From Elsinoe ampelina (taxonomy: Eukaryota), in the NCBI GenBank assembly GCA_010093995.1, contig ML992502.1, forward strand, positions 177,042 to 197,041: a DNA stretch of 20,000 nucleotides, in the 5' to 3' direction. Made by a program: the position numbers and the translations under genes. The notes beneath the pieces were generated by a model. It was not told the origin of the DNA, did no database searches, and saw only the letters and a list, made by a program, of their open reading frames with translations. Positions 1-20,000 of this stretch are shown here, in pieces. Every line of letters starts with the position of its first letter. Positions within the stretch are counted from its first letter, which is position 1.

Positions 1-184
1 CAAATGCAGGGATGCTTGCCAGAATGCTTCGAGCAGAGCAAAAGATGGCTGGCACCTGGTCATCAACCGGCGCCCTCGGTCAACCTCGGCTTCTCGTGAT
101 GCTTGGCATTGCGGAGGACCTGCTTCGTAGCTTAGGATAACGTGCACCGTACGTCGAAGCTCGGGCCCTGACAACCGTTTATCC

Positions 185-194
185 GTTTGTTTAC
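185..194 (-). promoter_or_regulatory. Possible forkhead-type site (GTAAACAAAC) upstream of NDC80
   Basis: GTTTGTTTAC on the + strand ~140 bp before the ATG matches the RTAAACA forkhead consensus. The motif is short and could be chance. Confidence 0.3.
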
Positions 195-331
195 TCGAGG
201 TTTGGCGCGCATACCGACTTTCATAAATCTTGAATAGTACAACTCGTCGGCGCATTCGACATTCGGCGTCGCATCATCGATATCGCACTTGAGCAAGGAT
301 AATCCGAGATAGCTTACCGTTCCTACTCATC

Positions 332-2647: not shown

Positions 2648-3432
2648 GGTGGTTCGTGGAGATGGATATGATTGATGATGAGCGATGGAATTTTTGTGAT
2701 TGGATCAAGGAGGAGCGATGATACCACTATCTTTTTTGTGTAATGACATATTGCTTGAGATGCATGTGGTGTTTTGGATCTACTGCTAGTGCACGGTGAT
2801 GGATAAGCAGTGTTGCGTGTGACCTCTTGTGCGTACATGTACGAAGATGCCATCCTGAGAGTAGCTGTGTGCTACATGCTAGCGAGCAAAGGCTTCCAAT
2901 CCGTCACTGGCTTCTCTTTGCGAGAGTCCGACGAACACAGGAGCGACTGCTTTGAAAGCATTGCTGAAGCGCTGCTTGTCCAGCCCTGGCTGAACCACGA
3001 TGGAGATGCGCTGGAGCCGCCGGGTGTGAGGTCGACTGTGATCATCTGGAGTGAAGAGGGGTTGTGGGGGTATAAAAGTGTGGCTGGATTTGGGCGTGTT
3101 CGTGGGAAGGGTTTGGTGTGTACAATACATACACAGGACACTGCAATGCTATGAGGGCATATTTCGCTAAGCCAATGCTTGGAAAAGTCCCAATCGCCCG
3201 ATCTATGCCTCAGGCAGTGGGGTGATATGCATGTATTGCAGACTTCACCTGCGCGACGACAGAGGGGTCCCGTCCAGCGATGCTGATGGAAGATGCACAG
3301 GACGGCAAAGGACGAAGTTGAGTTACTACCACATGCACTGCACGCTGGCACCCTACACATCCACCGACTCCAATCTCGAACGCACGCGGCGATCAACCAC
3401 TCAAGTCTGTATGGAAAACGCTCCACCACCCA

Positions 3433-5121
3433 TCACACCTTCCCCCCCTGCCTCTGACTCAACGGCCCCTGCGGAAAATCCAACACATCCGGCACCTCGA
3501 CCCTCCCCCCCTTCGCCTCCCTCATGGCCCTCACCTTCTCCCTCGGGGTAAACACCAAATCACACCTATCATGCCTAGAGCGATACCCATTCGCCTCAAA
3601 CGGAGCCATCTTGTCCGGCGTCGTCTCCGGCGCCAACGTGATGCGGAACTGCCTGAACGTCGCCACGAGAATCAACCGCATCTGGTACGTCGCCATGTTG
3701 CCCCCCGGACACCTGCGCGCGCCCACCCCGAACGGCACCAGCAGGCGTCGTTTCTCGGCCACGTTTTCGTCGTCCAGCCAGCGGCGTGGGTTGTAGCTGT
3801 CGAAATCCGGGAAGAGGTCCGGGCGCTGGCGGCTCATGGAGAGGGATTGGGTCGTGACGACGGTGCCGGCGGGGAGGTAGTGGCCTAGGATCTCGAGGCC
3901 GCCGGCGGGGACGAGGCGGCTGCCGGTGAGGGCGACGGGGGGCCGGAAGCGGAGGCCTTCTTTGATGCAGGCGTCGAGGAACTTGAGGGAGTCGAGGTCG
4001 GTGTAGCCGTCGTGGGAGGAGATTTCGTCGTAGAGGTCTTGTTGGAGGGATTGGTTCTTGGCGAGCTCGTAGTAGATGAAGGCGAGGGCCGAGGAGGTGG
4101 TTTCGGTGGCCGCGAGAACTGGATGTAAGGGTCAGTAAGATTATCTTCGTGATACCGCCGACGTGAACATACCCTGGCCGGCCATCTCGGCGCCAATCTC
4201 CGAGTCGGACCACTCCTGCGTGGGATATTTGGCATCGGTATCGGTGAAGAGCTTGTAAATGCTTGGATCTTCTTCAAAGGTGGAATTCCCTTGAGCCTTT
4301 GCCGCTTGTTTGCACAGATCATCGCCCAGTTGGAATAATTTGTCGCTAGAACGCACGCGGAAGCTAGCGTGGGAGAACGGACTCCATTGGAGCCAGGTGA
4401 AGAGCCATTCTGGCAGGCAAAGCCGCCAAACTACCAGAAAGTTGTATTCGCCAACGACGTGCGGGAACGTGGTGGCGTCCAGGTCGACTACTGAACCTCC
4501 CATGATGACTTGTGAGTTCTTCAGAGTACAGATACGAAGGTGCCAGACGATATCCTCGGACTTTTCTCCTTCGGATCGGCCGAGGTTGTGGACCATCTCC
4601 TCGATGTGCTTGACAAAGACGTCGTGTCGGAGCTTGAGATTCTTGGTGGTAGTGGCGATCATGACTGGATGGCGGCGTTGTCGGGCGATTGGGTGCTGTG
4701 GGTACGTCACTGTCCAGTCGTGGCCACCAACGCGGAGAGCGCGAATGGACGTTGGGGACGTATCAAGATCCTTCCTGATGAAGACCTTTTCTACAGCCTC
4801 TGGATCGTTGAGGATGACGAGGTTGGGAGCGATCCTGACGATTGGCCCGTATTTTGCCATGAGGGCATCTGCCTCGAAGGACAGTCTCCCGTGCCATCTC
4901 TGCCATCTGATCCAGAGGGAGGTCGCCGAGCTATGCCAGGGGCCAGGAATGGATCGAAGAGGGCCGAGATTGGCACGATAGATCATAGTACCAGCTCGGA
5001 ATAGTACCGAGGAGGCCAGGACAGCCCAAAGCAGTTCCCAGCGGAAGCCATCTCGGACATCGAGTTGTGTCTGCGGCGAGGGAACGCCGAAGAGGATCGA
5101 GCTTGAGTTGTCAAAATTCAT
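3433..5121 (-). CDS. Cytochrome P450 monooxygenase; complement(join(3433..4118,4173..5121)), ~544 aa
   Basis: N-terminal TM anchor followed by GPLRSIPGP; KYGPIVRIAPN; I-helix VLAATETT (formed across the splice junction); K-helix EGLR; YNPRRW meander; heme motif PFGVGARRCPG. The start at ATG 5121 is inferred; an upstream in-frame start at 5187 is also possible. Confidence 0.93.
4119..4172 (-). other. 54-bp intron of the P450 gene
   Basis: On the minus strand: GTATGT donor at 4172, CTGAC branch site, CAG acceptor ending at 4119. Splicing joins AEMAGQ to VLAATETT in frame. Confidence 0.92.
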
Positions 5122-6309
5122 GGTCGAGCAATGTCTTCCAAACGTCAACAACGCAGTGCATGCACAAGTGACGGGACAGAACACCATTTATGTCTGACGA
5201 GGGAAATCATGTCGTCGGGATCTGCGGTATTCAACCATCGGCGGTGTTGTCTAGGGCTGCATATGCCATCGCCTCCGGTAGTAAGAAATGTATCTTCAGC
5301 ACGTATCCCTCGTCGTATGTCGATGAGGAACGCATCACACCTACCAGACATTTTGATACGACGCATCCATTGCCTTGATAGCGAGACAGTAGCGTCGCCG
5401 ACATGTGGTTGTATGCCAAAGAGTGACTCCTCGCATGCCATCAAAGTCTTCGTGGGTAGGTGGAATGGGGTGCTAGGTCAGATTTGTCGAATTGATTGCA
5501 CTGGATTGGACGAGCGTGAAGTGCCCTAAACGGGACTTTCCTCTCATCGAAGACAGAGTCATGCCAAGGTGCTTGAAGGGACATCCACGTTGCGTGTGGC
5601 GTATGTGGTAGGATCAGGGCGTTATGATTCGCTCGTCCAGTCCGCAAGGTTACCTCCGGCCTCCTGTTCCATTGCAACATTTACTCTTGGATGAAGGGTC
5701 GTAGATAGACTGCTGCAAAAGGGCTGATAGTGCGTGCACAATACACGCAGGAGGGAATAGTCTGAAGTGATCTGTGACACGGGCCTGCTACAGTACAAGC
5801 GCAGCATCGACTCACTATCGTGCCGATGTGGTGTCACGATCGCGACTCGTATGACTGACCGCCGGTTGTGCCGGTGAGTTCCACTCACTGATACGGAGGT
5901 GTGCGAGGTCGTTTCGGCGTCTTCCTGAGTTGGGTGGATGGGAAAAATTGCGCCAGGAATGGAAAGCCCCCGAACTTGACACGCGAATTGTCACTACGTA
6001 AGCAGATTGGACATTCCAATTGGTCAGACTGCGGCTCTCTCGACGACTGCCCGATCGAGCTAGCGGCGGTCAGGGCCGCACTTCGCCTCGCTCGGGCACA
6101 GCCATTCCCTTGATTGGTCAGAATTGCTCCAAAACTTGAAGTTGACAAGCTGTGACGTTGTTGAGCTCGGCAACGTCTTTTCGGCTTCAAGTTCCGTTTG
6201 GCGTGTGACAGACGTTTTGCATGTGACAGACGCGCTTGACAACAGGTCGCGTCTCCTATCCATCACCACACAATGTAGTTGATCCTTGTACATCTCTTCG
6301 CCAGTCACA

Positions 6310-7814
6310 ATGGCACGAAGAGACGCAGACCAAGACAATGCGCAGTCGCAGAGACCGCTTGTGCGACTCTACCACACCATACTGGCACGTAAATGCACTC
6401 AACACGCTCAAAGCATGGCTAATCGGTGATACAGGACAAGCTCCTTCTACCCGTCCGGCTTCTCACCTCCAAATTCGCTCTTCGCGCATACCTGACCTCG
6501 ATCCTCTTCTTCATCACAGGCCTGCTGCTCTTTGCTTTCGCGGTGATCGCGTACGTCCTATTCTACTGGTCGTACGTCCCACGCATCGGCTTCTCAAGAG
6601 ATGTTCACCTTCAATATGATCCAATGCCTGTCGAGTGCCGCGCATATCTGGGAAGCGCGAATCCTTACTCGACCCCGTATCTGCCGCCATTGACAGGCGC
6701 TACACCTCCGCCACAGAGAAAGAGCGAGCTCACGGCGTCATTATCTACAAGATGCGCCGGGACACCTTCACCCTGGGGAACAGCGCCGGTTTCTCCAGAA
6801 GTCATCTCTCAGCAAGCTTATGATGTTGTCGTCGAGCTCACCATGCCACTCACTCCGCTCAACACTGAGGCTGGCAACTTCATGATTGACGCCCGCTTCC
6901 TCTCATCCCCAGCGCCCACCGAGTCTCTGCCCAAATACATCAACGACTACGACCCATTCTCTCCTCCGCCATCCACAGCCACCGACCTGGACGTTGAGCG
7001 TCCACTTGCTCACGCTCGCCGACCTGCGCTCATCCCCTATCACCCGCCTCTCATCTCCCTCTTCTCTTCATTCACTGCACTTCCACGATACGTCCTCGGC
7101 CTGCCGACCTCAACAACCACCCTCCGCGTGCCACTATTCACCCAAGTCTCCTTCCCACGCGGCCGCCGCGCCGTCCCTTCTTCCATTCACATCCAACTCC
7201 AAAACCCTTCCGGCGTCCAGCTCCAGGTCTACACCCTAAAAGTACATTTCCGCGCCCGCTTCTCCGGCCTGCGGTACCTGATGTACAACTTCCGCACCGC
7301 CTCCGGAATAGCTTTCATATTGTCATTCTTCTTCATGGAAGTTGTGACAGCTCTCGGCATCTACGGATTCCTGTCATTCGTTGTCTTCGGAGGAGATCGC
7401 CCCGAAGGTCAGAAGACAATCAAGGATGACCCTTCAGCCGACGACAGCGAGACGGCCATCAAAGACGAAGAGACCGAAACTGAGGGGATGAGTACCACTG
7501 AGCGGACATTCCCCTCATATGGAGGCGGGATGGCAATGAGATACTCCCAGCCTGCCGTCAAGCGGGAAGGGGAAGCAAGCAAGTCGGCAGTGATCGAGGG
7601 GCTGGGCGGGCTGACCAACATGACGCCCGGTCCAGGTGGAGAGGCCGACGATGAAGACGATGAGGATGCGGATTTTGTACTGGATGATACGGAGAGGTGG
7701 AGGGACAGTGGGCTCGGGACGAGTATGGAGAGTGGGAGGGAGAGGACCGCAGGGGTCAGGAGGCGGAAGAGTGGTCCCGGGAGTAGACCTGGGAGTAGAG
7801 GTGGTGGAAGATGA
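6310..7814 (+). CDS. SEI1: Seipin (BSCL2/Fld1 family lipid-droplet biogenesis protein); join(6310..6384,6435..7814), ~484 aa
   Basis: Two TM helices flank a lumenal domain with VHLQY, QQAYDVVVELTMPLTPLNTEAGNFMI, LQVYTLKVHFRARFSGLRYLMYNFR, followed by an acidic disordered tail with DSGLGTSMES. The supplied ORF starts at a GTG; the nearest ATG (6310) joins in frame via a short intron. Confidence 0.88.
6385..6434 (+). other. Putative 50-bp GC-AG intron of seipin
   Basis: GCACGT donor, GCTAAT branch site, CAG acceptor at 6432-6434. This is the only nearby donor giving an in-frame join (YHTIL|DKLLLP). Confidence 0.65.
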
Positions 7815-8548
7815 GGACAAATGGTGTGGTGTTGAGATTATGACCTGCATGAGGAACGATTGCTACTTTGCTGCGTTGTTGGGGACGGGTCACCAAAGCT
7901 GCTTGATAGAGCGTTACTCTCAACACTGCTGTTTACGATGCTCCTCCCGGTTCCATTCATCTTCTCGACCACGATATTTCGTGGTGTCAGGACATGTCCT
8001 TGTTCAGCCCAACAGACTGAAAGCAAGTGTCGGGCTGTACACCTCGCTCTGCAAACCTCGCCATCAGCGATGATCAATGGCAATCGTACTGCTGTTATTT
8101 ACCTTGTATCAATGACAGCTCGTGGACCTGCACCGCCCTCACCCGCGGCCAGGATAGCACCAACGACCACGAGATCGCACGTAATCAACAGGAGCACCCT
8201 GGTGAGCCCGATGTCGTCAAGGACCAAGATCAGCGGCCCATCCTTGCTACTCCTCACGAGCGACGGCCTCTGGCGCAAATGTACAATTCAAGAAGCCGTG
8301 CATCTAGTTGCAGGACACCAAGCGTCGAGGTCGTCGACGAGACTGCATGTCGGCCACCATCCAGCCAGCACCCGGTCAGGTGGGTCGACTTGGAGGCTCT
8401 CAATCACATTCGATCATAGACACAGCGACAGCGACAGCGACGGCTAGAGCCCCACGCAATGCAATTCCCATGACGCGACATCACTCGCACTCTGCTGGCC
8501 CAGATTCGACGACACAGGCATTACGGTACTCCAACGCAACACCTAGCA

Positions 8549-10960
8549 CTAGGACCCTTCGAACCCACCGGCTTTTGGTTTCCATTGCCCTGCCACCTCG
8601 CCTTTCTCGACCGTGATGTACCCTCCCTCCCCCGCCTTGCCCCTCAGAACCATCCCGGCCGACGAACCAAACACGACCTTCCCGACCAACGACCCCTGCT
8701 TCTCCCCCTCGACCTGCCCCTTCCTCACTTTGGCATTCTTCAAGTATGGCTGCTCCGGCGTACGCACTGGCCTGCTCGCCCTCTCCGCCCCGACCGATTT
8801 CTCCTGCACGGCCGGCCCGGGGTCAGCAGTGATTGCCACTGAAGCTTCATGTGGGAGGTAGAACGACACCCTCTTGAACACGGGCGTGCCGTCTTCGCGT
8901 TCGAGCATGCGGTAGGTGAACTTTTGATCTGGTAGGTCGGGGGCGGAGGTACTACCAGATAGGGCGGCTTGCTGGGCTGGAGTGGTGGGGGAAGCCGAGA
9001 AGAGAGGAGAGGACCATTGCGGGGCGTGACGGCCGGAGGAGGTGCGTTTGAGGATTGGGCCCGAGAGGGTACGCTTGGTAGGGGGTGAGGCATCACTTGG
9101 GGTTGGAGAAGTGGAGGCGGTGGGGAGGGGATGATCCGGGATGGATGGAGCGTGTGTCAGGGGCACTTTCTTGAAGATGGATGTGCCGTCGGGGCGGTCG
9201 ACCAGGCGGTAGGTGAATTGCTCTGCGACTGGTTGTTCAGCTGTCGGGCTTCGGTTGAAGACCGGGCCACCCCATTGTGGTGCGTGCCTACCGGATGAGA
9301 CACGCTTTCTGTTCTTGGGCCTGGTAGGCGTCGCTTGGGGACTGTCTGCAGGAGTCGCAGTGTCAGATCCTCTGGGTTCGAGAGGCACCTTCCTGAACAC
9401 AGATGTCCCGTCTGCACGATCGACAAGACGATAGGTGAATTTATGCTCTACTGGTTGCTCGGCTGCTTTTGTCTGAGCAAAGGCTGGAGTGCTCCACTGC
9501 GGTGCGTGCCTACCAGAAGACACTCGCTTAAAGACAGGCGTGCCGTCTGCTCGTTCGACCAGTCGATAGGTAGATGTCTCGTTCTCTGGGCTGACAACTT
9601 CGGTGCCAGAAGCTTCGTTGCTTGCAGCCGGTTTAGTCTTCTCCTCGGGCACTTTCTTGAAGAACGACGTCCCATCAGGCCGCTCCACGAGCCTGTATGT
9701 GAACTGCTGTTCTTCCGCGGCAGGCTCTGGAGCAGGCATCACCGGTTTCGTCTCCTGCACCGGCACCTTCTTGAACACAAACGTACCATCCTCCCGTTCA
9801 ACAAGTCGATACGTGAATTGCTCTTCCTCCTCTGCTTTCCCCGCTCTCGACTCCGCTTGCGCAAAGGCGGGAAAACTCCATTGCGGCACTGCCCTCCCAG
9901 ACGATACCCGCTTGAACACCGGCGATCCATTCCGTTGTACCAGCTTGTACGCTCCATCGTCGTCTGAAGCCTTCCGCTTAAGGACCGTGATCGGTGCGTT
10001 ATTATTGACAAGTGATGTTGGTGTCGGTGTCGGGCTCAACATTGGCTTGGCGAAATCGGGACTGCCCCATTGAGGCGCATGCCTCCCAGAGGACACGCGC
10101 TTGATACTACCAGGTCGTCCACGAGGAGTCAGATTGAATGAGGTGTCGGGTACGTCGATGCTCTCCTCTTCAGGAACAGAGGCCCCGACCACAGCTGGCG
10201 AAGTCACGCTCCTCGTAGCAAACACTGGGGCATTCCATTGTGGTGCATGCCGACCACTCGAGACCCGCTTCATGATCGACGGACGAGTGCGTCGTACAAG
10301 AACATCCTCCTGGCTTGCTTCGTCGCCATTTACGCTCCCAGACCCGTTCAGTCTTGCTATGCTCTCATCGAATTTGTTCCCGGTCGGCCACGTTGGTGTC
10401 CCCCAGTTCGGAGCATGTCTCCCGCTTGCTGTCCTTCTGAAGACGGGAGCTCCGTTGCGCTCGACAAGTGCACATGTAGAGTTGCCATTGTCTAGGGATC
10501 GTTCTTCGGGTACCTCACCTATGATGACCGAGCCGGCGTCCTCCTCTTTCGGCTGCCCGTACAGTGACTGTGTCCAGGTAGGCGTGCCCCAATTTGGCGC
10601 ATACCTCCCACAGCTTGTCCTCTTGAGGATTGGTACCCGTTCTCTGCTCACCAGTGTGTATGAGGCGCTCCTCGATCCCGAGACCGACTCTTGCTCCGTA
10701 GTGCCATTGGTATCGCGAGCAAGGTCCTGGTTGGATATTCCGTGTCTAGCTGGGAGAGGACCTTCTGCTACAACTGTGCCGATAAAGTCCCTGATGTTGG
10801 GGGTCGATTGGTCACCAGCTTCGCTCCCAATGGCGATGAGCTTGACCAGGAGTTCTCCAGGTTTCAATTGAGTCCCAAGAGGTAGCTGCGGAACATTCGC
10901 ATCCAGAGAAGTACCACCATCTCCGCGACGACCAATGGCCTCGGTCGTCAGGAATGGCAT
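8549..10960 (-). CDS. Uncharacterised 803-aa protein with interleaved KRxSSGRHAPQW and YRLVERxDGTxxFK repeats; termini resemble a split GroES-like (ADH_N) domain
   Basis: 2.4-kb uninterrupted ORF from an ATG. The repeats are conserved as amino acids while codons vary between copies, which indicates real coding constraint. Confidence 0.85.
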   Translation of the reverse strand: MPFLTTEAIGRRGDGGTSLDANVPQLPLGTQLKPGELLVKLIAIGSEAGDQSTPNIRDFIGTVVAEGPLPARHGISNQDLARDTNGTTEQESVSGSRSASYTLVSRERVPILKRTSCGRYAPNWGTPTWTQSLYGQPKEEDAGSVIIGEVPEERSLDNGNSTCALVERNGAPVFRRTASGRHAPNWGTPTWPTGNKFDESIARLNGSGSVNGDEASQEDVLVRRTRPSIMKRVSSGRHAPQWNAPVFATRSVTSPAVVGASVPEEESIDVPDTSFNLTPRGRPGSIKRVSSGRHAPQWGSPDFAKPMLSPTPTPTSLVNNNAPITVLKRKASDDDGAYKLVQRNGSPVFKRVSSGRAVPQWSFPAFAQAESRAGKAEEEEQFTYRLVEREDGTFVFKKVPVQETKPVMPAPEPAAEEQQFTYRLVERPDGTSFFKKVPEEKTKPAASNEASGTEVVSPENETSTYRLVERADGTPVFKRVSSGRHAPQWSTPAFAQTKAAEQPVEHKFTYRLVDRADGTSVFRKVPLEPRGSDTATPADSPQATPTRPKNRKRVSSGRHAPQWGGPVFNRSPTAEQPVAEQFTYRLVDRPDGTSIFKKVPLTHAPSIPDHPLPTASTSPTPSDASPPTKRTLSGPILKRTSSGRHAPQWSSPLFSASPTTPAQQAALSGSTSAPDLPDQKFTYRMLEREDGTPVFKRVSFYLPHEASVAITADPGPAVQEKSVGAERASRPVRTPEQPYLKNAKVRKGQVEGEKQGSLVGKVVFGSSAGMVLRGKAGEGGYITVEKGEVAGQWKPKAGGFEGS

Positions 10961-11386
10961 AGCCAGCGATGAGTGAGAGCAATAGCTTCCAGGACTTCAA
11001 AACGCGTACTGCGACAACATGCGACCCCGATCGCGTTCCCAGCAATCGCTAACGCAAGAATGGTGGAAGAAAAGACGAAAGGAAAACGGACAGAAGGGAC
11101 AGAAAATGCGACAGCCACCAGCGACGCCGGGTCTAAAAAGCTTGTGTCTCACCTATCTCTGTCATGAGGCGCCTGAAGGGTCAGCATGGTGGGCGGAGGT
11201 CTCTGTTCATGAGGCTGGTCTGGTAGGTGACTGTCGAATTGAATGAGGCCTGACTGCTCCATTGCTATCGTCAGACAGCCCAAGCATACTCTGGAATGTC
11301 CACGACCCTCGGACTTTTTTGTCTGGCACGAAACGGTGCGTGGCGCGGTTGGCGTTGAAAGAGCGATGGCGTGATTTGACGATTTG

Positions 11387-11528
11387 TGTTGTAATGGAAG
11401 GCTGGTACAGCTTCTCTGGTACTGAAGAACTGGCACTGATGAGTCAGCGCACGCACAGTAGATAAATTGGTTATTGTAACTCTCTAAATGAAACACACGT
11501 CTCTCGATCCGATTTGCCAGTTATAACA
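11387..11528 (+). repeat. Putative 142-bp 5' LTR of the Copia element
   Basis: Starts TGTTGTAA and ends TTATAACA (an 8-bp inverted repeat with one RIP-type mismatch), immediately followed by the PBS. The partner LTR lies outside the window, so the left edge is inferred. Confidence 0.65.
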
Positions 11529-11540
11529 GGTTATAAGCCC
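11529..11540 (+). promoter_or_regulatory. Copia primer-binding site (internal tRNA-iMet fragment type)
   Basis: GGTTATAAGCCC is GGTTATGAGCCC with one TG->TA change, the PBS type of copia/Ty5-like elements, and sits directly after the LTR-terminal CA. Confidence 0.8.
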
Positions 11541-11785
11541 GGCGCTTCTCTAAAAGCACTTAAAGCTATAGCAAATTAAGCGTGTCATTATTAAAAGGAT
11601 TACTAAGCCGCCTACACTAAATTCTGAACTAGCTACATTAAGATAAACACCTATAGTAGCCCGTATTAACCCTTTAATTAAACAGCTTAAACGGCTTAAA
11701 TAAGCTAATTACATTAATTAAATTAATAGGCCTTTAGCTAATTACTATTATTATATCTAGATTAGTAAAAATACTTAAGACTTAG

Positions 11786-12682
11786 ATTCTTAAGAGAGAA
11801 AGCAACTACAATACTTAGAGATTAACCCTTAAGGTAGCCCTCCTTAAAAAGGATATACTTAGATATACAATTTATAACATTAACTAGATACTAGTAGTTA
11901 TAAAGCCTAAAGAACTAGCCCTAGATACTAGTAAAGGCACTAAGGTAATCTATAAGGTTAGAAATAAGACCTAGTATAAGAATAATAGAATTACTTATAG
12001 TATTATTATAATAAGAATTTATAAATCTATTAGACCTTACTATAGTATAACTTAGAAGACTTTAAAGAAACTTCTAGATACTATTAAATCTATATTTAAA
12101 TCTATTATTTTATATAAGCTATATATAGCTATCTATAACCTTAATAAGGTAATTATAACAAGTTATAATACCTAAAAGTACTATAAAGATTTTATAAAGT
12201 ACTATTATTAATACACTATTACTATAGAGCAAAGAGTAAGCACTATTAGTACTAAACTAAATAAGTTTAGGCTCCCTCTATACTATATTAAAACTATATT
12301 TATTATAGGAATAGAGACTACTAAATAGTTAAGGAGCTAGAGATCTAGCCTTAACTATAAGAAGAGTCTTAAAGAGATAATAGACTCTCTTAGAATATAG
12401 AAGCTCCTATATAATAAAAGAACTAATCTAAACTCTATTTATAGAGTAGCTAGTTATATTAAGGATTAATACACTTAGTATACTTATTATATCTACTCTA
12501 ATATAGATTACTTTAAGTAGTACTCTAAGAAAGTACTAAAGAGTTAAAGTAAAAGAAATAATAAAGACAGGTTAAATAATAAAGATATAAAGGCTAAAGG
12601 TAAAAGTAATAAGTTAAAGACTAAGAAAGTTAGAGGTTAAGTAGCTATTAAAGAATCTAGAGAACCTACTAAGGTAGATAAA
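11786..12682 (+). pseudogene. Copia gag remnant (RIP-degraded; true start further upstream, not resolved)
   Basis: ILKRESNYNT*RLTLKVALLKKDILRY reverts to ILEGESNYNTWRSTLEAALLEKDMLGY. 12470-12511 (tac act tag tat act tat tat atc tac tct aat ata gat tac) reverts to C-x2-C-x4-H-x4-C in the same frame. Confidence 0.72.
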
Positions 12683-13145
12683 TGTTATAAACTAGTAGAA
12701 CAGCTAGAACATAGAGATGTTAGGACTAATTAAGCTACTAAGATTATTACGTAACCTAGCTCGACGTTTACTTAGTTCTCTATCTTCTCTAGTAGCTCTA
12801 CCTCTAAAACTATAGAGCGCGTAGGTTACTAGTAGACGTGTACTCTATATTACCTCTAACTCTCGCTACGAAGTATATAGAGTATATAAAGAATATAATA
12901 GAGAACATATATATATAGGAATAGTCCTTACCTTATATAAGTACTATAGTTAACCTTATCTAGATAGCGAACACTAGTATTGCTAAGGCTAGCCTTTATA
13001 ATACTATCTAATTGTACTTTATTATCTATAGGATATACTTTCTCTAACTCTTACCTTAGTGCTATACTACTATAGAAGTAGAACTCTCTTGTTCTTAGCT
13101 TAGCTTAGACTACTAGCGTAGACTATATTTAAACGGTTCGTGACA
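12683..13145 (+). repeat. Gypsy 5' LTR (463 bp)
   Basis: TGTTATAAAC...GTTCGTGACA. Aligns without gaps to 19238-19700. Confidence 0.96.
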
Positions 13146-13261
13146 TTTTAACTACTCTTACTATAGTATAGCACGCTACGAGGTTAATAAGTAACTCTTA
13201 CTCTAAGTTACTATTAGTATCTTCGATTACTAGTAAGCTAGAAAAGCTTACTATTAACGAC

Positions 13262-15247
13262 ATATCTACTACTAGTTTAACCTCGGGCGAATATAGAAGG
13301 TCTCTTAGTATAGAGGAAAAATAGAGTAAGCCTAAGTTAGAGGTAGAACTCTTCTATAGAGACTATGCTTACTTAAGGCGCTTCCTTGTTTAACTTAAAG
13401 CCTTCTTTACTCTAGAGAGAGATAAGTACGCTAATAACATAGTAAAGGTCCTCTATGCCGGGATACACCTTAAAGGCGCTATCTTTAGGTAGTTCGAGCC
13501 TTATATAAGTAGCTACCTAGATAGATAACTAGGCCTAGATATAAAGGCTATCTTTAAGAGCTTTAGTATCTTCTAGGCAAAGATTAAGTAAGTCTTTAAT
13601 GTATCTAATAAGGAATACGTCGCTACGACAAAGATTTAACAACTATAATAACGTAGGTCTATAGCCTAGTACTATTCCTAGTTCTAATAACTCGTAATAT
13701 ACCTAGACTAGAATAATAGTACTAAACATTTAGTATTCTACTAAGGACTAAGCGACTCGGTTAAAGACTAAATAATACCCGAGCCGCCTAATAGCCTCTA
13801 AGAACTAGTAGATACTACAATTACTATTAATAACTAACTTTACGAACGACATATAGAACATTATAGAGGATATAAAGTAAACACTAGATATACGCGTTCC
13901 TCTCGAAACTATAGAGACTCTATAGAACTTAACGCTATATATAAAGGTTGCCCCTTATAGGTATAAGGCTAAAGTCGTAGAGGAAAGTTCCTTAGTAGAA
14001 AAGAGAGAGAGAAGTATAGATAAGACAATCTATGTTTTAAGTGTAAAAGACCTAGGCATTAGGCTAGGGACTACCGATAAGGGGCGCTAGCCGATAGATT
14101 ATATATAATAGTTACTAGGCTAGTAGAGAAAAAGGCTAACACTACTATAGAAGACTTAACGACCTTTAGCATAGGTAAGAAAATATAGAAGGAGTCTATA
14201 ACGACTTAAGAGGTAATAGAATTCTCTCCGGATATTACACTTAATATTTCTATAATTAATAGCGAATAACAAAGCTAATACGTAACGCTATTATAGATAG
14301 TATATTACGATAACTCTTATTACATTTACTTGTTAGATAAGTAAGGATCTAGTTAGTCCCTATATAAGCTATCTAAGCGTAGGCAACTAACGAAATAGCT
14401 AGACTAGGAACCTAACTTAGAAAGGCTCTCTATAATTAGTAGTAATAGTAACTAACCTTAGAAGGTAGTTAGCAACAATTACTAATATACGATTATCGAG
14501 ACGAAGTATTAGGACGTAAGTGCTATACGACAATATAGTAGTCTTACCTTTAGCTCTTATAGTAAACTACAAGGAAAGGCATATTATATATCGCTCTAGA
14601 AATACATAAATCTAGATTACAAATAGTACTATACTATTTACTTATACGATGTACTTAGAGAAGAGGCTATTAGTCTTAAATACACTATAGACTTCTTAGT
14701 AATCGAAATAGGTAGTACTATTCCCTATAGCTAAGTACGGAAATACACTTAGTGTAGCCTTACTAACTATAACTATACTAGAGACAGTAGCGACGAAGAG
14801 AAATATAACAAAGAATATACCGAACAACTATAATATAATAATATAAATAACAATTTATCTAACAACGACAACGACGTACTACTACTAGGCGGACGACTTA
14901 AAGTATACCTTATAGGGATATAGAGAAACTATATAATAATATATACCTATTACTAGAACAAAACACGACAAGATAAATCTACTTAACCTACTTTCGTCTT
15001 TAATACTAATACCTAGCTACACCTAGAGGGAATAGTTATACTAATATAAGTGTATAATACTACTTAGTGTAACTAATAGAGGATTATTAAACTTTATAGT
15101 TATTAAGGAACTTAAGCACTAGAAGTCTACCTCGCTATATTAAACAATAATAAGACACGACTAGCCTAATAGGTATAATATTAATAATAGATACGTACGG
15201 GAAGGGATTAACTACTTATCTAAGGCGCTATAATAATAAAAAACTAG
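13262..15247 (+). pseudogene. Gypsy gag (RIP-degraded, ~660 codons; start inferred from ATA<-ATG at 13262)
   Basis: KPKLEVELFYRDYAYLRRFLV*LKAFF...KVLYAGIHLKGAIFR*FEPY is capsid-like; SIELN reverts to PMELD near 13918; knuckle CFKCKRPRH*ARDY at 14033-14074. The same frame ends at AAA AAC TAG. Confidence 0.85.
15238..15247 (+). promoter_or_regulatory. -1 ribosomal frameshift slippery site A AAA AAC followed by the gag stop TAG
   Basis: X XXY YYZ heptamer in the gag frame. All downstream pol motifs lie in the -1 frame. Confidence 0.75.
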
Positions 15248-18200
15248 CTAGTTGTTACCTAACGAGGTAAGATAATAACACTAGCTAAAGCCTTAATATA
15301 ATAAAGATCTATATATTAAATTACTTTATACTAGAAGTCGAAATATAAGAGAGTAAGGTAAGAGTAATAATAGATTTAGGAGCTAACTAAAGCTATATCT
15401 CTATAATAGTTACTAATTAGCTTAAACCTTATTAATACTAGAAGGAGTTACCTTACCTACTTACTATAGCAGATAGAACCTCTATAGAGAAGGACAGGAA
15501 AGTTACTTAGGAACTACGAAACGTTATAATCTAAATCGAAACATATATAGAAAAATAATTAATTAATATAGTTAATATATAGTACGATATAGTACTTAGT
15601 ATAGACTAGCTATAATAATACAACCTAGACGTAGACTAGATTAAAGGAACACTTGAATTCTCTAAGTGTAATTATAGAATATAGGGAGTATAATTAGCTC
15701 CGTAGATACTAACTATAAGAATAGTATAGGTACGACTAATAGTTAGAGCTATCGCTAGTGTAAGTAATTAAGTACTTCTACTAGAATATAAAGACTTTAA
15801 GGACTTATTTAAAGAAAGAGAAGGCATCGTAGCCTTACTCTAATATAAACTATAGAATTACAAAATACTCTTTAAAGAGAGTAAACCCCCGATACACTAT
15901 TAAGGTCTTATACTACTATCGAAATAAGAGAAGAACATCTTTAAGAACTACATCGATAAGTACTTACTTAAAGGATTTATACGACTATTAAAATTACCTA
16001 TTACGTACGGAGTGCTTTTTGCACCTAAAAAGAATAGAATATTATAAATATATATTAATTACTAGAAACTTAATACACTTACTAGGAAGAATCGCTATTC
16101 TCTACTAAGAATTAACAAACTTTAAGACTAACTTCTTAGAGCTAAATAGTTTACTATAATTAACATTAGAGACGCCTATTATTAAGTATAAATAAAGGAG
16201 AGCGAGGAGTAGAAAATAGCTTTTAGAACATAATAGAGTCTATATAAGTACCTCGTTATGCCCTTTAGGTTAACTAACGCTCCTACGACCTTCTAAGAGT
16301 TAATTAATAACACTTTATAAGAATACCTCAATAACTTTATCTTAGTATATTTAGATAATATTATTATCTTCTTAAAGATATATAATAAATACGTAGGACA
16401 TGTTTGTAAAGTGCTATAGAAACTAAAAGAAAAAGACCTACTAGTAAAACTCTCTAAGTGTAAGTTCTATAAATATAAGATACAATTTCTAGGCTATGTT
16501 ATATCTACTAATAGTATTAGACCTAATCTAAAGAAGATCGAGTTAGTAAATAACTAGCCGGAACCTACGATAGTTAAGAAGGTTTAAGCGCTACTAGAGT
16601 TCTTTAACTACTACTATAAGTTTATAGAAGGATTCTCTAAGGTAGCTACGCTAATATCTAACCTTACGAAAAAGAAAACTAGCTTTATCTTTAACAAGAG
16701 ATATAGGTAGGCCTTTAAGGAGCTAAAGCTTAGGCTTATAATAGTACCTGTCCTAGCACTATTCGACCTAGACTAATAAGTACTACTAGAAACGAATATC
16801 TCGGACTTTGCGATAGAAGTGTATCTAGCGTAGAAGGACGTAGAAGAACGACGCTACCTAATTATATACTACTTACGAAAAATAACTAGACCTAAACTTA
16901 ACTACGATATATACGACAAGGAATTACTTACAATTATAGAAGTATTCCGCAAATAGAGAGTATACCTAGAAGAGACAACCTTACTCGTATAAGTCTATAC
17001 TAACTATAAGAACCTTCTATATTAGACAACAACTAAGGTTCTTAATAGATAATAGGTTCGATAGTTAGAAACACTTATAAGCTATAACTTCTAGATCTAC
17101 TATATTAAGGGATTAGAGAATAGTAGAGTAGACGCTCTTAGCCGCTAGTTAGATTACTTAAAAAACATAATAATAATAGAGGCCTCTATACTAAAGTAGC
17201 AAGACGGTACTTTAGTCTATAAGCACTCGAAGGTAGAGTAGTTATATAGTCTTACCTAGGAGCTTACGTAAGAATAGAAAAAAGAAGTTATTTAAATACA
17301 CTATAATAACCTAACTATAGGACATAGCGGGATTAATAAGACTATTAAACTTATTATATAAAACTACCTCTAGAAAGGACTCTAAAATAATATTAAGATA
17401 TATATCGCTATATACGATATATACTATAAGTCTAAACACTCTCGATATAAACTATATAGCCTACTATAACCCTTGCTACTACTAGACAAACTATAGTAAT
17501 TAGTTACGATAGACTTTATAGGACCTCTACTACTATTAGAAGAACCTCTTATAGGTATAAAGTATAATAGTATTCTAGTCCTAGTAGATAGATTTACGAA
17601 GTATTACTACTTTATACTATATAAGACAATAGTAACTACTAAGGATATAGCCTTTACCTTCCTCTAAATAATTGTTTTATAATATAGAGTACTATAAGAC
17701 CTAATAACTAATAGGGATAAGCTATTTACGTTACAATTCTAGTAATTATTTATAGACCTACTAGGAGTTAAATATAAGCTATTAACCTCCTTTTACCTAC
17801 AAACGAATAGATAAACTAAACAGGTAAATTAAGTACTAGAGTAGTACCTACGATGCTACCTAAACTATAAGTAAGACTTATAGGCGACACTATTACTACT
17901 CGTAGAGCTTACTGTTAATAATAGAAAGTTAGCGAATAGAATTTTACTATTCTATATAAACTATAGAATATACCCGGATCTATACTACGACATACTTAGA
18001 ATTAAGCTAGTATCTAAGGATGCTAATATACTAGTAGCTAATATTAAGAAACTATATAACTAGCTATACTACAATATAGCATTTATATTACAAAGAATAG
18101 TAGAGTTTACTAACTAGAAGAGAATTACGGGACTAATTCTATAGGAGAGAGAGAAAGTTTACCTCCTTAGTAAAAACATTAAAACGAAACAACTAAGTAA

Positions 18201-18530
18201 GAAACTTAACTACACTAAACTAGGACTCTTTAAGATCCTAGAAAAGAAAAACAAGAACGTATATAAACTAGAACTACTAAGACATATAAGAATCTACCTA
18301 GTCTTTTATATATTACTACTAGAGAAAGTACTATAGAATACTATACCTAGACTTATCGAACTAGATAAAGAAACATAGGAGCTATAGTATAAGATCGAAA
18401 GAGTTTTACGTTATAAACTTATAAAAGGAAAACGCTACTATCTTATTTACTAGAAGAGACATTAGTATAGCGAAGTAATATAGAAACTAGAGAAGTACCT
18501 TACCTCGTAAGCAATTCTAGATTACTAGAT
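15244..18530 (+). pseudogene. Gypsy pol: protease, reverse transcriptase, RNase H, integrase, chromodomain (RIP-degraded; 3' end approximate)
   Basis: All in one frame: IDLGA (<-DSGA) 15370; YKYLVMPFRLTNAPTTF 16243; YLDNI (<-YLDDI) 16348; NYDIYDKELL 16900; VDALSR 17128; VDRFTK 17584; LQTNR*TKQVN (<-PQTDGQTE.VN) 17797; GLFKI 18223; chromodomain YKIERVL...YLIY*K...I*KLEKYL 18388-18502. Confidence 0.93.
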
Positions 18531-18614
18531 TAAGAACCTATCCTAAGTAAACTAACTAGATAGACCTAGCACTCTAAACACTAAACAAAAACAAGAACGC
18601 CTAAGGAAGACTAC

Positions 18615-19163
18615 TTAACTAATAGAAGTGCCCTAATTATTACTAAATAAGGAACCCTAATCGGAGTTAGGCATAAATAACTACTAATTCTATAGTAGGA
18701 CGGGATTTACTAACGATAGTATTTCCTCTTACTCTAGAACTTAAATACGAGTTTCCTCTAGAGAGATTACTTTCTCTACTTTATCCTCTAACTTTTATAT
18801 CTCTTTACGTAGGTAAAGCTTATCGCCTATAGCTCTTTAATAAGCCTCTTTTACCTTTTTATAAGCTTCTTTAGCTTCTCTTCTAGTAGCCTTAGCTATA
18901 ACTAATTCCTTTCGTAAATAAATATACTTAGACTAGAGACGCTACTATTCTAATTTTGTTACCTAAATATTATAACTCGAGTAGTTACTTATAATATACT
19001 AGCTATAGATACCCGACCGAATATAGACCTTATAGTCTAGCCCCTTCGATTTATAACAAGAATAAGTCTATAGTATATTAGTTCCGAATAGTTCGATAAA
19101 CTCTAAGAGATTCTTTCGTATAGATGTACTAGATTTACTATGCCTTTAATAACTAGGAGACAT
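18615..19163 (-). pseudogene. Antisense accessory ORF of the Gypsy element: Zn2Cys6-like motif plus coiled coil (RIP-degraded; 3' end uncertain)
   Basis: ATG at 19163. Six TAT codons (TGT before RIP) at codons 34, 37, 44, 53, 56 and 64, followed by an E/K/A/R-rich helix. All in-frame stops are TAA/TAG, consistent with RIP of CAA/CAG/TGG. Confidence 0.65.
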
Positions 19164-19222
19164 ATTTAGTATATAACGCATAAAGATAAGAAAGAATACT
19201 TACTCGTTAGGACAACTCGATT

Positions 19223-19234
19223 AAAGGAGAAGAG
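19223..19234 (+). promoter_or_regulatory. Polypurine tract of the Gypsy element
   Basis: AAAGGAGAAGAG ends 3 nt before the 3' LTR. Confidence 0.8.
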
Positions 19235-19237
19235 TAA

Positions 19238-19700
19238 TATTATAAACTAGTAGGACAGCTAGAACGTAGGGACGTTAGGACTAATTAAGCTACTAAGATT
19301 ATTACGTAACCTAGCCCGACGTTTACCTAGTTCTCTATCTTCTCTAGTAGCTTTACCTCTAAAACTATAGAGCATATAGGTTACTAGCGGACGTATACTC
19401 TATATTACCCCCGACTCTCGCTATAGAGTATATAAAGCACACGGAGAACGCAATAGAGAACATATATATATAGGAACAGTCCTTACCTTATATAAGTACT
19501 ATAGTTAACCTCGTCTAGATAGCGAATACTAGTATTGCTAAGGCTAGCCTTTATAATACTATCTAATCGTACTTTATTATCTATAGAATATACCTTCTCT
19601 AACTCTTACCTTAGTACTATACTACTATAGAAGTAGAACTCCCTCGTTCTTAGCTTAGCTTAGACTACTAGCGTAGACTATATTTAGACGGTTTATAACA
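19238..19700 (+). repeat. Gypsy 3' LTR (463 bp)
   Basis: TATTATAAAC...GTTTATAACA. About 43 differences from the 5' LTR by manual count, all transitions. Confidence 0.96.
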
Positions 19701-19705
19701 ATAAA

Positions 19706-20000
19706 TTAGATAAATACTCTAACACTAATATTAATATTATTATACTAGTCTATAAAGTAGTAGTAGTATCTATATTATTATTCTTAACCTATAGTAAGAA
19801 TAGAGTAATCTATAACTCTAGTGTATTAAGGCACTTTATTAAAGATAGATTATAGTTCTTAACAATTAAGGAACATAAAGATATTCTTAAATTTAAATAA
19901 GCTATTAGTATAAAGAAGCTACTTAATATAGAAATTAGTATAGTTAGGCTTATACTAACTAATAGCAAAGGTAAGAAGTTAATTATTAAGCTTTATAATT
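19706..20000 (+). pseudogene. Copia aspartic protease region (RIP-degraded, partial)
   Basis: 19805-19834 reads VIYNSSVLRH, which reverts by transitions only to VIYDSGASRH. It is in frame with the upstream gag once the 7023-bp insertion (element plus one TSD) is removed. Confidence 0.75.

Follow-up and report, generated by a model that had tools for sequence, protein, structure and literature searches.

A RIP-inactivated antisense gene for a six-cysteine protein in a lineage of fungal Ty3/Gypsy elements

Extra antisense open reading frames are known from LTR retrotransposons, and passages of PMC7264820 describe their function as unknown. Among fungi, Botrytis cinerea and Sclerotinia have Boty-like Gypsy elements in which an antisense gene, brtn, separates pol from the 3′ LTR (Zhao et al. 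2011, Virology 417:248, as cited in PMC8365987, PMC7264820 and PMC4227169); the passages on brtn in these three papers describe its function as unknown and mention no zinc cluster or coiled coil. The plant Gypsy elements Grande, RIRE2, Retand and PvRetro13 have antisense extra ORFs termed aORF-3R (PMC7264820, PMC11963269), whose function is given as unknown in passages of PMC7264820. In Zymoseptoria tritici, the DUF3716 (PF12511) proteins REP9-1 and REP9-2 belong to a class II transposon, according to passages of PMC8232023. Our literature search turned up no paper on a fungal LTR element whose antisense ORF encodes a zinc cluster, and the relevant passages of PMC3248453 mention none.

Here we analysed a 20,000-nucleotide stretch of the Elsinoe ampelina genome (contig ML992502.1, positions 177,042 to 197,041; hereafter the window) and found that positions 18615–19163 of its minus strand are a RIP-inactivated accessory gene of one fungal Ty3/Gypsy lineage, probably of chromodomain elements. 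An earlier note on the window had read this RIP-erased gene from codon-level mutation logic alone, and had cautioned that its novelty needed checking. The reading was correct, as was the caution: an antisense gene at this position has already been described for Boty of Botrytis.

The host element and its antisense frame

The window contains a RIP-degraded Ty3/Gypsy element (12683–19700) with two 463-bp LTRs and the target duplication ATAAA, which we read directly at 12678–12682 on the left and 19701–19705 on the right. BLAST of the element ends (91% identity) and reading of the ends placed the 5′ LTR, TGTTAT...GTGACA, at 12683–13145 and the 3′ LTR, the presumed source of an antisense promoter, at 19238–19700, both on the plus strand. 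Pol lies on the same strand (15301–18618) with 84 stops and, by Pfam and alignment to P0001, comprises RT, RNase H, integrase, SH3 and a chromodomain-like end. The Pfam matches were RVT_1 (2.4e-16), RT_RNaseH_2 (1.2e-17), Integrase_H2C2 and SH3_Tf2-1, and identity to P0001, which is named as an Elsinoe fawcettii Tf2-type polyprotein, was 59% over 1050 aa, the alignment stopping at about 18615. The Pfam chromo domain had no match in this RIP-degraded pol copy at E ≤ 0.01; P0001 carries PF00385 among its precomputed domains, and the pol alignment reaches through the P0001 C terminus. A plus-strand purine run at 19223–19237 aligned with the conserved tract that adjoins the LTR edge in relatives and constitutes the polypurine tract (PPT). 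The element thus has the RT–RNase H–integrase order, LTRs, PPT and target duplication of Ty3/Gypsy elements. It is heavily RIP-like: the LTRs differ at 43 of 463 bp, 43/43 differences are transitions, and the RIP indices are 1.98 (TpA/ApT) and 0.19 ((CpA+TpG)/(ApC+GpT)). We take the element to be present in many copies, because 4656 read contigs of the source organism match 18300–19700; two presumed-RNA runs yielded 0 contigs matching this interval.

Translation of the minus strand from ATG 19163 to 18615 (183 codons, 17 stops) reproduced the string first reported, apart from hyphens that the earlier note had put in, including six TAT codons (18972–19064; starts 19064, 19055, 19034, 19007, 18998 and 18974) spaced x2-x6-x8-x2-x7. 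By itself this spacing is not above chance. The 31-codon stretch contains eight Tyr codons (seven TAT, one TAC) and one TGT, so the six TAT codons are a choice from nine candidates. The [Y/C] spacing pattern occurred three times in the six frames of 11501–20000, the other two sites being 14849(−) and 19464(−), and at least once in 25% of 300 dinucleotide shuffles. The stop density of the antisense frame (17/183 codons, 0.093) is no lower than that of the other five frames there (0.088–0.126; pol, 0.076), and Pfam had no match in the six frames of the spacer.

Homology to intact relatives established that the observation is real. An exhaustive HMMER search (phmmer, with the window's antisense frame as query and stops as X) found 13 proteins of 71–211 aa at E ≤ 1e-3 (best E 1.2e-14), all with C-x2-C-x6-C-x8-C-x2-C-x6/7-C exactly at the six TAT positions of the window. 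The family was detected by the exhaustive search only; a word-index protein search with the RIP frame gave 115 candidates, none at E ≤ 10. BLASTP of the window frame against the ORF of the nearest intact relative, L004, gave 2e-25, and hhalign against the family profile gave 99.4% (E 2.4e-21). At 58 of 85 conserved columns the window is identical or reachable through C>T/G>A changes alone, compared with 14.7 ± 3.4 in permutations (maximum 26; 0/2000 reached 58). All six TAT codons align with six invariant Cys columns, at which L004 reads TGT, TGC, TGT, TGT, TGT and TGC, which bears out the proposed RIP conversion of TGT/TGC to TAT; the relatives speak against CAT, TAT or CGT as the less-mutated state of these sites. 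A further TAT at 19025 aligns with a near-invariant His column (CAT>TAT), TAG 18659 with a Trp column, and ATG 19163 with the start of the relatives, as had been supposed. In the source organism the second site reads TAC in most other copies (19053 A>G), and no middle base of the six TAT codons was among the 40 listed of 232 variant places in its read contigs. We are nearly certain that the antisense gene is real and ancestral; its suggested size of about 180 aa between the pol chromodomain end and the PPT agrees with that of the intact relatives (169–213 aa).

Intact relatives and their genomic setting

We found relatives encoded at 60 metagenome loci, 36 of which have intact ORFs. In pairwise comparisons, pN was lower than pS in 434 of 435 pairs, and dN/dS was 0.03–0.15 between the closest pairs and 0.03–0.12 in the first 130 codons, which have no overlap with pol. 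Judged by these codon comparisons, the protein is under strong purifying selection; both the search for intact relatives and the dN/dS test proposed in the earlier note came out in favour of a gene. It is antisense to, convergent with and adjacent to Gypsy pol in 44 of the 60 loci, or 44 of the 48 informative ones, the 12 others being too short to tell. Its start lies 42–113 nt inside the 3′ LTR edge (27 loci with the edge located), and its 3′ end overlaps that of pol in 25 of 29 intact loci. Even an LTR-bounded 2.4-kb deletion derivative (L005/L006) keeps the gene, together with a gag fragment. In this the gene resembles aORF-3R and brtn-type genes: it lies on the opposite strand, after the end of pol and before the PPT and 3′ LTR, and its coding sequence is conserved among copies. 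None of the 60 loci lay on poly(A)- or poly(T)-ended contigs, and Rfam had no match in five loci. Pairwise identities of the six-Cys protein and pol were only weakly correlated (rho 0.14), and this correlation is not significant (170/999 permutations as high). Close pairs were concordant (for example, 0.99/0.97 and 0.97/0.95), and L008/L051 were discordant, with 44% for the six-Cys protein versus 91% for pol.

The named relatives come from Dothideomycetes. In UniRef, two Aulographum relatives are named 'Zn(2)-C6 fungal-type domain-containing protein'; among the 40 cluster members listed, there were two zinc-cluster names and two 'multidrug efflux pump subunit AcrA', and the others were unnamed or 'hypothetical protein'. 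The closest clusters in the ESM Atlas, with 122, 62 and 99 members, likewise bear the name 'hypothetical protein', and the Atlas gave no Pfam family, also when restricted to named clusters. Because no Pfam family is matched at threshold by the relatives and zinc-cluster names are few, genome annotations probably miss or mislabel the family.

The six-Cys module, the long helix and the LTR

The relatives share one order of parts: an N-terminal helix, the six-Cys module, a heptad-periodic helix of about 100 residues and an acidic/aromatic tail with near-invariant P and W columns. Their six invariant Cys, periodic helix and conserved tail match the Zn2Cys6-like spacing, coiled coil and acidic-aromatic tail originally read in the window. 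The tail remnant occupies 18615–18725 of the minus strand by alignment to relatives, and its stop codon shares bases with that of pol on the opposite strand. All 47 sequences keep the six Cys, and 29 of 30 intact ORFs show the pattern; L051, which has an insertion, is the exception. Between Cys 3 and Cys 4, Ser is invariant, Val, His and Gly are nearly so, and no Pro is conserved.

The suggested relation to Zn_clus (PF00172; C-x2-C-x6-C-x5-12-C-x2-C-x6-8-C, gathering threshold 21 bits) held in part: the family has the defining six-Cys spacing, and every Pfam match fell below threshold. Zn_clus was among the commonest weak matches: 11 of 47 members had one at E ≤ 1, the strongest at E 0.0053, and the examples listed scored 12.1–12.9 bits; 0/47 reached 21 bits. 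DUF5651 (12/47 members) and DUF3716 (5/47, best E 9.7e-4) scored similarly, DUF3716 below its own gathering threshold of 22 bits (P0018, 17.2 bits). Structure prediction of the relatives, also proposed in the earlier note, pointed towards a Zn2Cys6 likeness. In AF2 models (pLDDT 86.7 and 87.7), a short helix begins at each CxxC, and in a Foldseek search with the domain model, ranks 1–13 were all Zn2Cys6 DNA-binding domains, although these hits were statistically weak; the full model gave the same picture, and nearly every predicted-fold hit was to a domain of this type. Searches of PDB sequences with full-length and domain profiles returned nothing significant, the best matches of the domain profile being the L37Ae zinc ribbon (E 0.083), LAC9 (0.87) and LEU3 (3.2). 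Spacing and models together suggest a divergent binuclear cluster of the Zn(II)2Cys6 type, with Pfam scores below threshold.

The long helix, a putative coiled coil, corresponds approximately to 18726–18956 of the minus strand, as judged from the AF2 model of L004, periodicity and the window alignment. In L004 it is modelled as a single helix (residues 70–169, pLDDT about 98), and hydrophobic periodicity in 29 relatives peaks at 3.5 residues. The modelled helix and its periodicity are consistent with a protein that dimerises along it.

In four loci the ATG lies 42–49 nt from the LTR edge, and because this distance is short we infer that the 3′ LTR is the source of an antisense promoter. Heptamer arrays, TATA boxes and CACGTG boxes occur in conserved order across the lineage's LTRs, and the window 3′ LTR contains RIP-decayed copies of all three. 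Of 21 LTRs, 15 contain 5–9 copies of a related 6-mer (TGAGCA, AGAGCA or TGATCA), lying in both orientations (P ≤ 0.01), and in 7 of 10 LTRs examined such copies are arranged as inverted repeats. The best candidate target, on these sequence patterns, would be the inverted GAGCA-core heptamer array between the TATA box and the CACGTG box in U3. The heptamer core is without CGG, and scans for CGG-Nx-CCG, CCG-Nx-CGG and CGG-Nx-CGG at any spacing found none enriched in 17 LTRs (best 3–4/17). L017 and L021 have near-identical residues from Cys 1 to Cys 3 and different heptamers; there is therefore no simple co-variation of protein and site.

Between the PPT and the ATG, alignment of relatives revealed the decayed remnant of a conserved hairpin with loop TCC/TCCT (19203–19219, minus strand). 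The window keeps 3–4 pairs, and stems have at least six pairs in 21 of 25 loci. The hairpin lies in the gene's own 5′ leader, its arms co-vary (16 distinct arms in 25 loci), and G·U pairs are tolerated only on the strand of the six-Cys mRNA (summed stems 163 versus 137). RNAalifold reported no structure for the hairpin alignment because differences in loop length shift the arms, and stems were counted per sequence in its place.

Proposed mechanism, alternative readings and known systems

The six-Cys protein looks, from sequence and models, like the element's own transcription factor, encoded by a widely conserved gene. An antisense transcript would initiate from a promoter in the 3′ LTR; its product, carrying a Zn(II)2Cys6-type cluster and dimerising through the long helix, would work in the nucleus, where, as a sequence-specific regulator encoded by the element, it would control the LTR of that same element. 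We lean slightly towards this mechanism as a whole. The regulator's target may be the inverted GAGCA-core heptamer array in U3, between the TATA and CACGTG boxes. That a widespread ascomycete Gypsy lineage encodes a miniature Zn2Cys6 dimer from a 3′ LTR antisense transcript, and that this dimer binds these arrays and so switches the element's transcription in the sense and the antisense direction, whether as a transactivator or as a governor of copy number, is a more tentative proposal that we consider rather doubtful. If true, the regulator would be comparable to retroviral accessory regulators, and the same factor could bring nearby host genes under element control, because LTRs and solo LTRs are scattered across genomes.

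An alternative is that the gene is real and its Cys module is instead a zinc module of ribbon-like or other type, binding RNA or protein and having a role in replication, packaging, targeting or counter-silencing; candidate partners would be the PPT-side hairpin, the genomic RNA of the element, integrase or a silencing factor of the host. The rank of L37Ae as best PDB sequence match, the Zn_clus threshold never reached, the co-varying hairpin in the 5′ leader, the lack of enriched CGG sites and the near-invariant His, a seventh possible ligand, all fit such a module. However, zinc ribbons have knuckles rather than short helices at their CxxC pairs, unlike Zn2Cys6 domains, and the AF2 models place short, Zn2Cys6-like helices at both pairs. 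The 13 top Foldseek hits include zero ribbons, and the family's predicted cluster–linker–coiled-coil–acidic-tail order matches that of GAL4-type factors. We regard an RNA- or protein-binding module as possible, if unlikely.

It is far less probable that the ORF was a host gene which the element captured and now carries along neutrally, or that the loci are host genes merely beside Gypsy insertions. Two relatives are annotated as ordinary genes of Aulographum hederae on contigs of 170–189 kb, and the poor correlation of divergences between the six-Cys protein and pol, with L008/L051 as the discordant pair, would also suit a host gene. This reading is already disfavoured by the constant position and orientation in the informative loci, the start held close to the LTR edge, the 3′ overlap with pol, the low dN/dS among element copies, retention in the deletion derivative and the concordance of close pairs. 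A chance origin, in which AT-rich RIP DNA produced the TAT spacing and the lysine/glutamate-rich stretch by accident, would accord with the recurrence of the pattern in the RIP block and in shuffles, the background stop density and the lack of a match in Pfam or the word-index search. The phmmer, BLASTP and hhalign E-values and the RIP-reachability permutations refute it, leaving it a negligible probability.

The window gene family has a recognisable biochemical identity (six-Cys module, predicted coiled coil and acidic tail). Dozens of its natural sequences are intact and strong selection acts on them, and the LTR itself contains a candidate cis-target. The plant aORF-3R genes resemble it in position, orientation and conservation among copies, as described in passages of PMC7264820, which report no zinc-cluster identity. 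They belong to another kingdom and to other element lineages. DUF3716 of the REP9 proteins is likewise a small, Cys-rich domain of fungi that a transposon carries; there the host is a DNA transposon and the protein architecture differs, and the family's matches to the domain are below threshold.

GAL4-type factors (the GAL4, PPR1, PUT3, HAP1, LEU3, LAC9 and Pho7 domains) share with the family the six-Cys spacing, the modelled short helix at each CxxC, a heptad helix after the cluster and an acidic/aromatic C terminus, and they fill the top Foldseek ranks. By contrast, all 47 family members score below the Pfam Zn_clus threshold, the family has no conserved Pro between Cys 3 and Cys 4, and an extra N-terminal helix lies ahead of the cluster. 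The family protein is only about 190 aa long, without the middle homology region that is a feature of GAL4-type factors, and it is encoded by a retrotransposon in whose LTR CGG sites are not enriched. Retroviruses also have antisense genes driven from the 3′ LTR, HTLV-1 HBZ (a bZIP protein) and HIV-1 ASP. Their likeness, an antisense gene beside the 3′ LTR for a small, dimerising, transcription-factor-like protein, would be one of analogy only, between unrelated proteins and hosts. The closest precedent is brtn of Botrytis Boty, likened by position and orientation. Boty hosts are Leotiomycetes, whereas the named relatives of the window gene come from Dothideomycetes; in both, as far as the cited passages on brtn go, a fungal Ty3/Gypsy element carries an extra antisense gene between pol and the 3′ LTR.

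Decay of an antisense gene in the spacer after pol

Positions 1–11400 of the window consist of genic DNA rich in GC. At about 11500 the GC content drops to about 30%, and the AT-rich block that begins there has extreme RIP indices (TpA/ApT 1.94; (CpA+TpG)/(ApC+GpT) 0.20). The block holds a complete LTR element (12683–19700) flanked on both sides by ATAAA, and its two 463-bp LTRs differ at 43 sites, 100% of them transitions. AT-rich, RIP-like DNA extends beyond the element in both directions (11500–12677 and 19706–20000), which places the element inside an older degraded repeat block. Although pol is decayed, it still matches Pfam models (RVT_1 at 2.4e-16, two RNase H models, an integrase zinc domain and a Tf2-type SH3), and it shares 59% identity over 1050 amino acids with an Elsinoe fawcettii protein named as a Tf2-type polyprotein. 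This protein ends at about 18615 in the alignment, so a spacer of about 620 bp separates pol from the 3' LTR, and the minus-strand frame 18615–19163 occupies it exactly. A polypurine tract (PPT) was read from the sequence at 19223–19237. The gag region (13202–15301) matched no Pfam family in any frame; its frame +2 contains a decayed CCHC knuckle (C-x2-C-x4-H, after which come a stop and, in place of the expected Cys, a Tyr). In the GC-rich part, an 803-aa minus-strand ORF (8549–10960) carries a short motif (...SSGRHAPQW...) many times, alternating with 'FTYRLV.R.DGT' units.

An earlier note had claimed that the minus-strand frame encodes a zinc cluster in which RIP turned TGT into TAT. Its translation from 19163 to 18615 was reproduced exactly, and the six TAT codons were located at 19064, 19055, 19034, 19007, 18998 and 18974 (minus strand). 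The 31-codon stretch around them contains eight Tyr codons and one TGT. Across all six frames of the AT-rich block, the same spacing turned up three times when Y or C was allowed; of 300 dinucleotide shuffles, 25% contained it one or more times. Stops account for 17 of 183 codons in the antisense frame, not below neighbouring frames, and for 84 of 1105 in the true pol frame. No frame of the spacer matched Pfam, and a word-index protein search with the antisense frame returned no match. Taken alone, the TAT pattern is not above chance.

A chance origin, which we had initially considered highly probable, was overturned by the relatives found in an exhaustive HMMER search of the frame, with stops as X, against 1.84 billion representatives. 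This search recovered 13 proteins of 71–211 aa at E ≤ 1e-3 (best 1.2e-14). Common to them are the pattern C-x2-C-x6-C-x8-C-x2-C-x6/7-C, conservation of the segment between Cys 3 and Cys 4, a long helical region and, as the earlier note had described, an aromatic/acidic tail, which is likewise conserved; two of them are also RIP-like, with several Cys replaced by Tyr. The window frame matched its nearest intact relative, the ORF of metagenome locus L004, at 2e-25 by BLASTP, and a family profile of 47 sequences with 99.4% (E 2.4e-21, 170 columns).

The effect of RIP was measured on unrepaired window codons at the 85 columns in which 60% or more of 30 intact relatives agree. A codon was counted as reachable if it encodes the consensus residue or derives from one of that residue's codons through C>T or G>A changes only. 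At these columns, 34 codons were identical and 58 reachable, compared with 14.7 ± 3.4 (maximum 26) for permuted window codons; none of 2000 permutations reached 58. All six columns with 100% Cys read TAT in the window, and the L004 codons at these sites are TGT, TGC, TGT, TGT, TGT and TGC, which bears out the proposed change. Elsewhere, a near-invariant His became TAT, a 90% Trp became TAG and a Met became ATA. At the second Cys site, TAC is found in most of the other copies that the source organism carries (19053 A>G, depth 13686/21517), the expected outcome of a TGC ancestor.

Selection on an element-borne gene

JGI metagenome contigs, scanned by pattern, yielded 60 loci encoding relatives. 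The ORF is uninterrupted at 36, giving 33 distinct proteins; among these intact ORFs, those of L029 and L036 are over-extended, and those of L035 and L051 do not have the strict Cys pattern. After duplicates (L006, L025, L026) and aberrant ORFs (L029, L035, L036) were dropped, 30 ORFs remained for dN/dS analysis. pN was lower than pS in 434 of 435 pairs, showing codon-level conservation on the antisense strand. For the 18 pairs with dS of 0.1–1.5, dN/dS was 0.03–0.74 (median 0.40), and for the eight closest pairs it was 0.03–0.15 in seven and 0.53 in L009/L010. In the first 130 codons only, which have zero overlap with pol, it was 0.03–0.12.

By tblastn, the C terminus of pol adjoins the end of the antisense ORF on the opposite strand at 44 of the 60 loci; at 12 others, less than 400 bp of downstream sequence is present. 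Of the remaining four, L005 and L006 represent one deletion derivative, L036 has a deletion inside pol, and L047 is both short and degraded. The deletion derivative (L005, 4673–7086; L006, 8551–10964) measures 2.4 kb and is bounded by 330-bp LTRs that are 95% identical to each other; it has lost pol and retains an intact 175-aa antisense ORF together with 155 aa of gag (Retrotrans_gag, E 9.6e-5). At 29 loci both the antisense ORF and pol are open, and in 25 of these they overlap at their 3' ends, by a median of 77 nt; frame run-on probably accounts for two values near 475 nt. The start codon lies 42–113 nt inside the LTR edge at the 27 loci where the edge was found by pattern (3 others were unmatched) and 74 nt inside it in the window. 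The proposed ancestral antisense gene is thus confirmed by intact ORFs convergent with pol: it is a conserved, selected gene carried by the element, and the window copy is dead.

The relatives that bear a name belong to Aulographum hederae and Friedmanniomyces endolithicus, and the nearest pol to E. fawcettii. These species are all Dothideomycetes, and the nearest Atlas clusters carry the label Ascomycota. Pairwise identities of the antisense-encoded protein and pol correlated weakly (rho 0.14; 170 of 999 permutations as high), which runs against simple co-inheritance. Divergence of the two was concordant in close pairs and discordant in L008/L051 (44% versus 91% in the integrase part of pol) and, the other way, in L018/L038 (73% versus 47%). 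The discordant pairs point to module exchange between elements or to bursts of fast evolution in the accessory gene. Nine contigs (L012, L014, L018, L019, L025, L026, L029, L032, L038) look circular, their ends repeating exactly over 123–174 nt; most simply, this is assembly collapse of two LTRs, and it may also reflect one-LTR circles or tandem arrays.

The encoded protein and its possible targets

No Pfam family reached threshold in 47 members. The commonest weak matches were DUF5651 (12 members, best 6e-4), Zn_clus (11, best 0.0053) and DUF3716 (5, best 9.7e-4), and UniRef automatically names two Aulographum relatives 'Zn(2)-C6 fungal-type domain-containing protein'. Profile searches against PDB sequences gave nothing significant, the best for the domain being the L37Ae zinc ribbon (E 0.083), LAC9 (0.87) and LEU3 (3.2). 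AlphaFold2 with the family alignment modelled both forms confidently, at pLDDT 86.7 for the full protein and 87.7 for the 70-aa domain; both models predict an N-terminal helix, a short helix starting at each CxxC and an unbroken helix over residues 70–169. Foldseek against PDB gave no E value below 0.27. Ranks 1–13 for the domain model and nearly the whole list for the full model were, at this weak statistical level, Zn2Cys6 DNA-binding domains; the matches include Pho7, HAP1, PUT3, PPR1, LEU3, LAC9, GAL4, Cep3 and AlcR, which we take all to be Zn2Cys6 proteins. The claimed Zn(II)2Cys6-like cluster therefore stands in Cys spacing and predicted fold, and with Pfam Zn_clus below threshold we withhold assignment to PF00172. 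The claimed coiled coil agrees with the predicted long helix, whose mean hydrophobic periodicity in 29 relatives has a sharp maximum at 3.5 residues (power 46 versus 18.5 at 3.6), the heptad signature of coiled coils.

Read in the gene's direction, every LTR of the lineage has a TATA-type block (without variation in all 10 LTRs aligned), a heptamer array and a TCACGTGA box, followed by the LTR edge about 100 nt on, the PPT complement, a hairpin and the ATG. The array consists of TG[C/A]TC[A/T]G units and then their reverse complements; in 7 of the 10 LTRs examined for this, the units form inverted repeats. The top-repeated 6-mer (TGAGCA, AGAGCA, TGATCA or a one-base shift) occurs 5–9 times in both orientations, at P ≤ 0.01 in 15 of 21 LTRs (mononucleotide-shuffle maximum 5). 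This U3 layout with 5–9 GAGCA-core heptamers is found in L002, L004, L007–L009, L012, L015, L017–L019, L021, L029, L032, L033, L038, L042 and L049. The heptamer differs by sublineage (CTGAGCA, CTGATCA, CAGAGCA, GAGAGCA), and L001 has a distinct unit (TTCCTGG/CCAGGAA). RIP-decayed versions of these motifs remain in the window LTRs (12683–13145 and 19238–19700). In a run from another organism, 232 contigs mapped here, with depth mostly at the outer LTR part (19475–19700); there seems to be a related LTR or repeat in that organism.

We lean towards a mechanism in which a putative antisense promoter in the 3' LTR would transcribe the gene, and its product would dimerise as a small zinc-cluster protein and act on the LTR of the very element that encodes it, where the heptamer arrays are candidate sites. 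Evidence on the other side is that the family scores are sub-threshold, CGG pairs were not enriched in the 17 LTRs scanned, and protein–site co-variation of a simple kind was not found. The main rival, possible although we hold it to be clearly less probable, is that the zinc module binds a protein partner or RNA, such as the co-varying hairpin in the gene's leader. This hairpin lies just inside the PPT (19203–19219 in the window; upstream of the ORF in L001–L051) and has a TCC or TCCT loop. Its stem has at least 6 pairs with G.U in 21 of 25 loci and is perfect over at least 6 in 14, with 16 distinct co-varying arm sequences. The wobbles pair only on the mRNA strand of the antisense gene (summed stems 163 versus 137). 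At the five loci searched, the hairpin had no match in Rfam.

Relation to known antisense genes

DUF3716, a weak match of the family, is reported, in the available text of PMC8232023, within a Zymoseptoria DNA transposon. A full-text literature search found no paper tying a zinc cluster to an antisense ORF in fungal LTR elements, and the available text of a review (PMC7264820) terms the function of all such antisense ORFs unknown. An antisense gene at this position is already known: brtn, carried by the Boty elements of Botrytis and Sclerotinia (cited in PMC8365987 and PMC7264820). By the description in these citing papers, brtn resembles the gene studied here in position and orientation.
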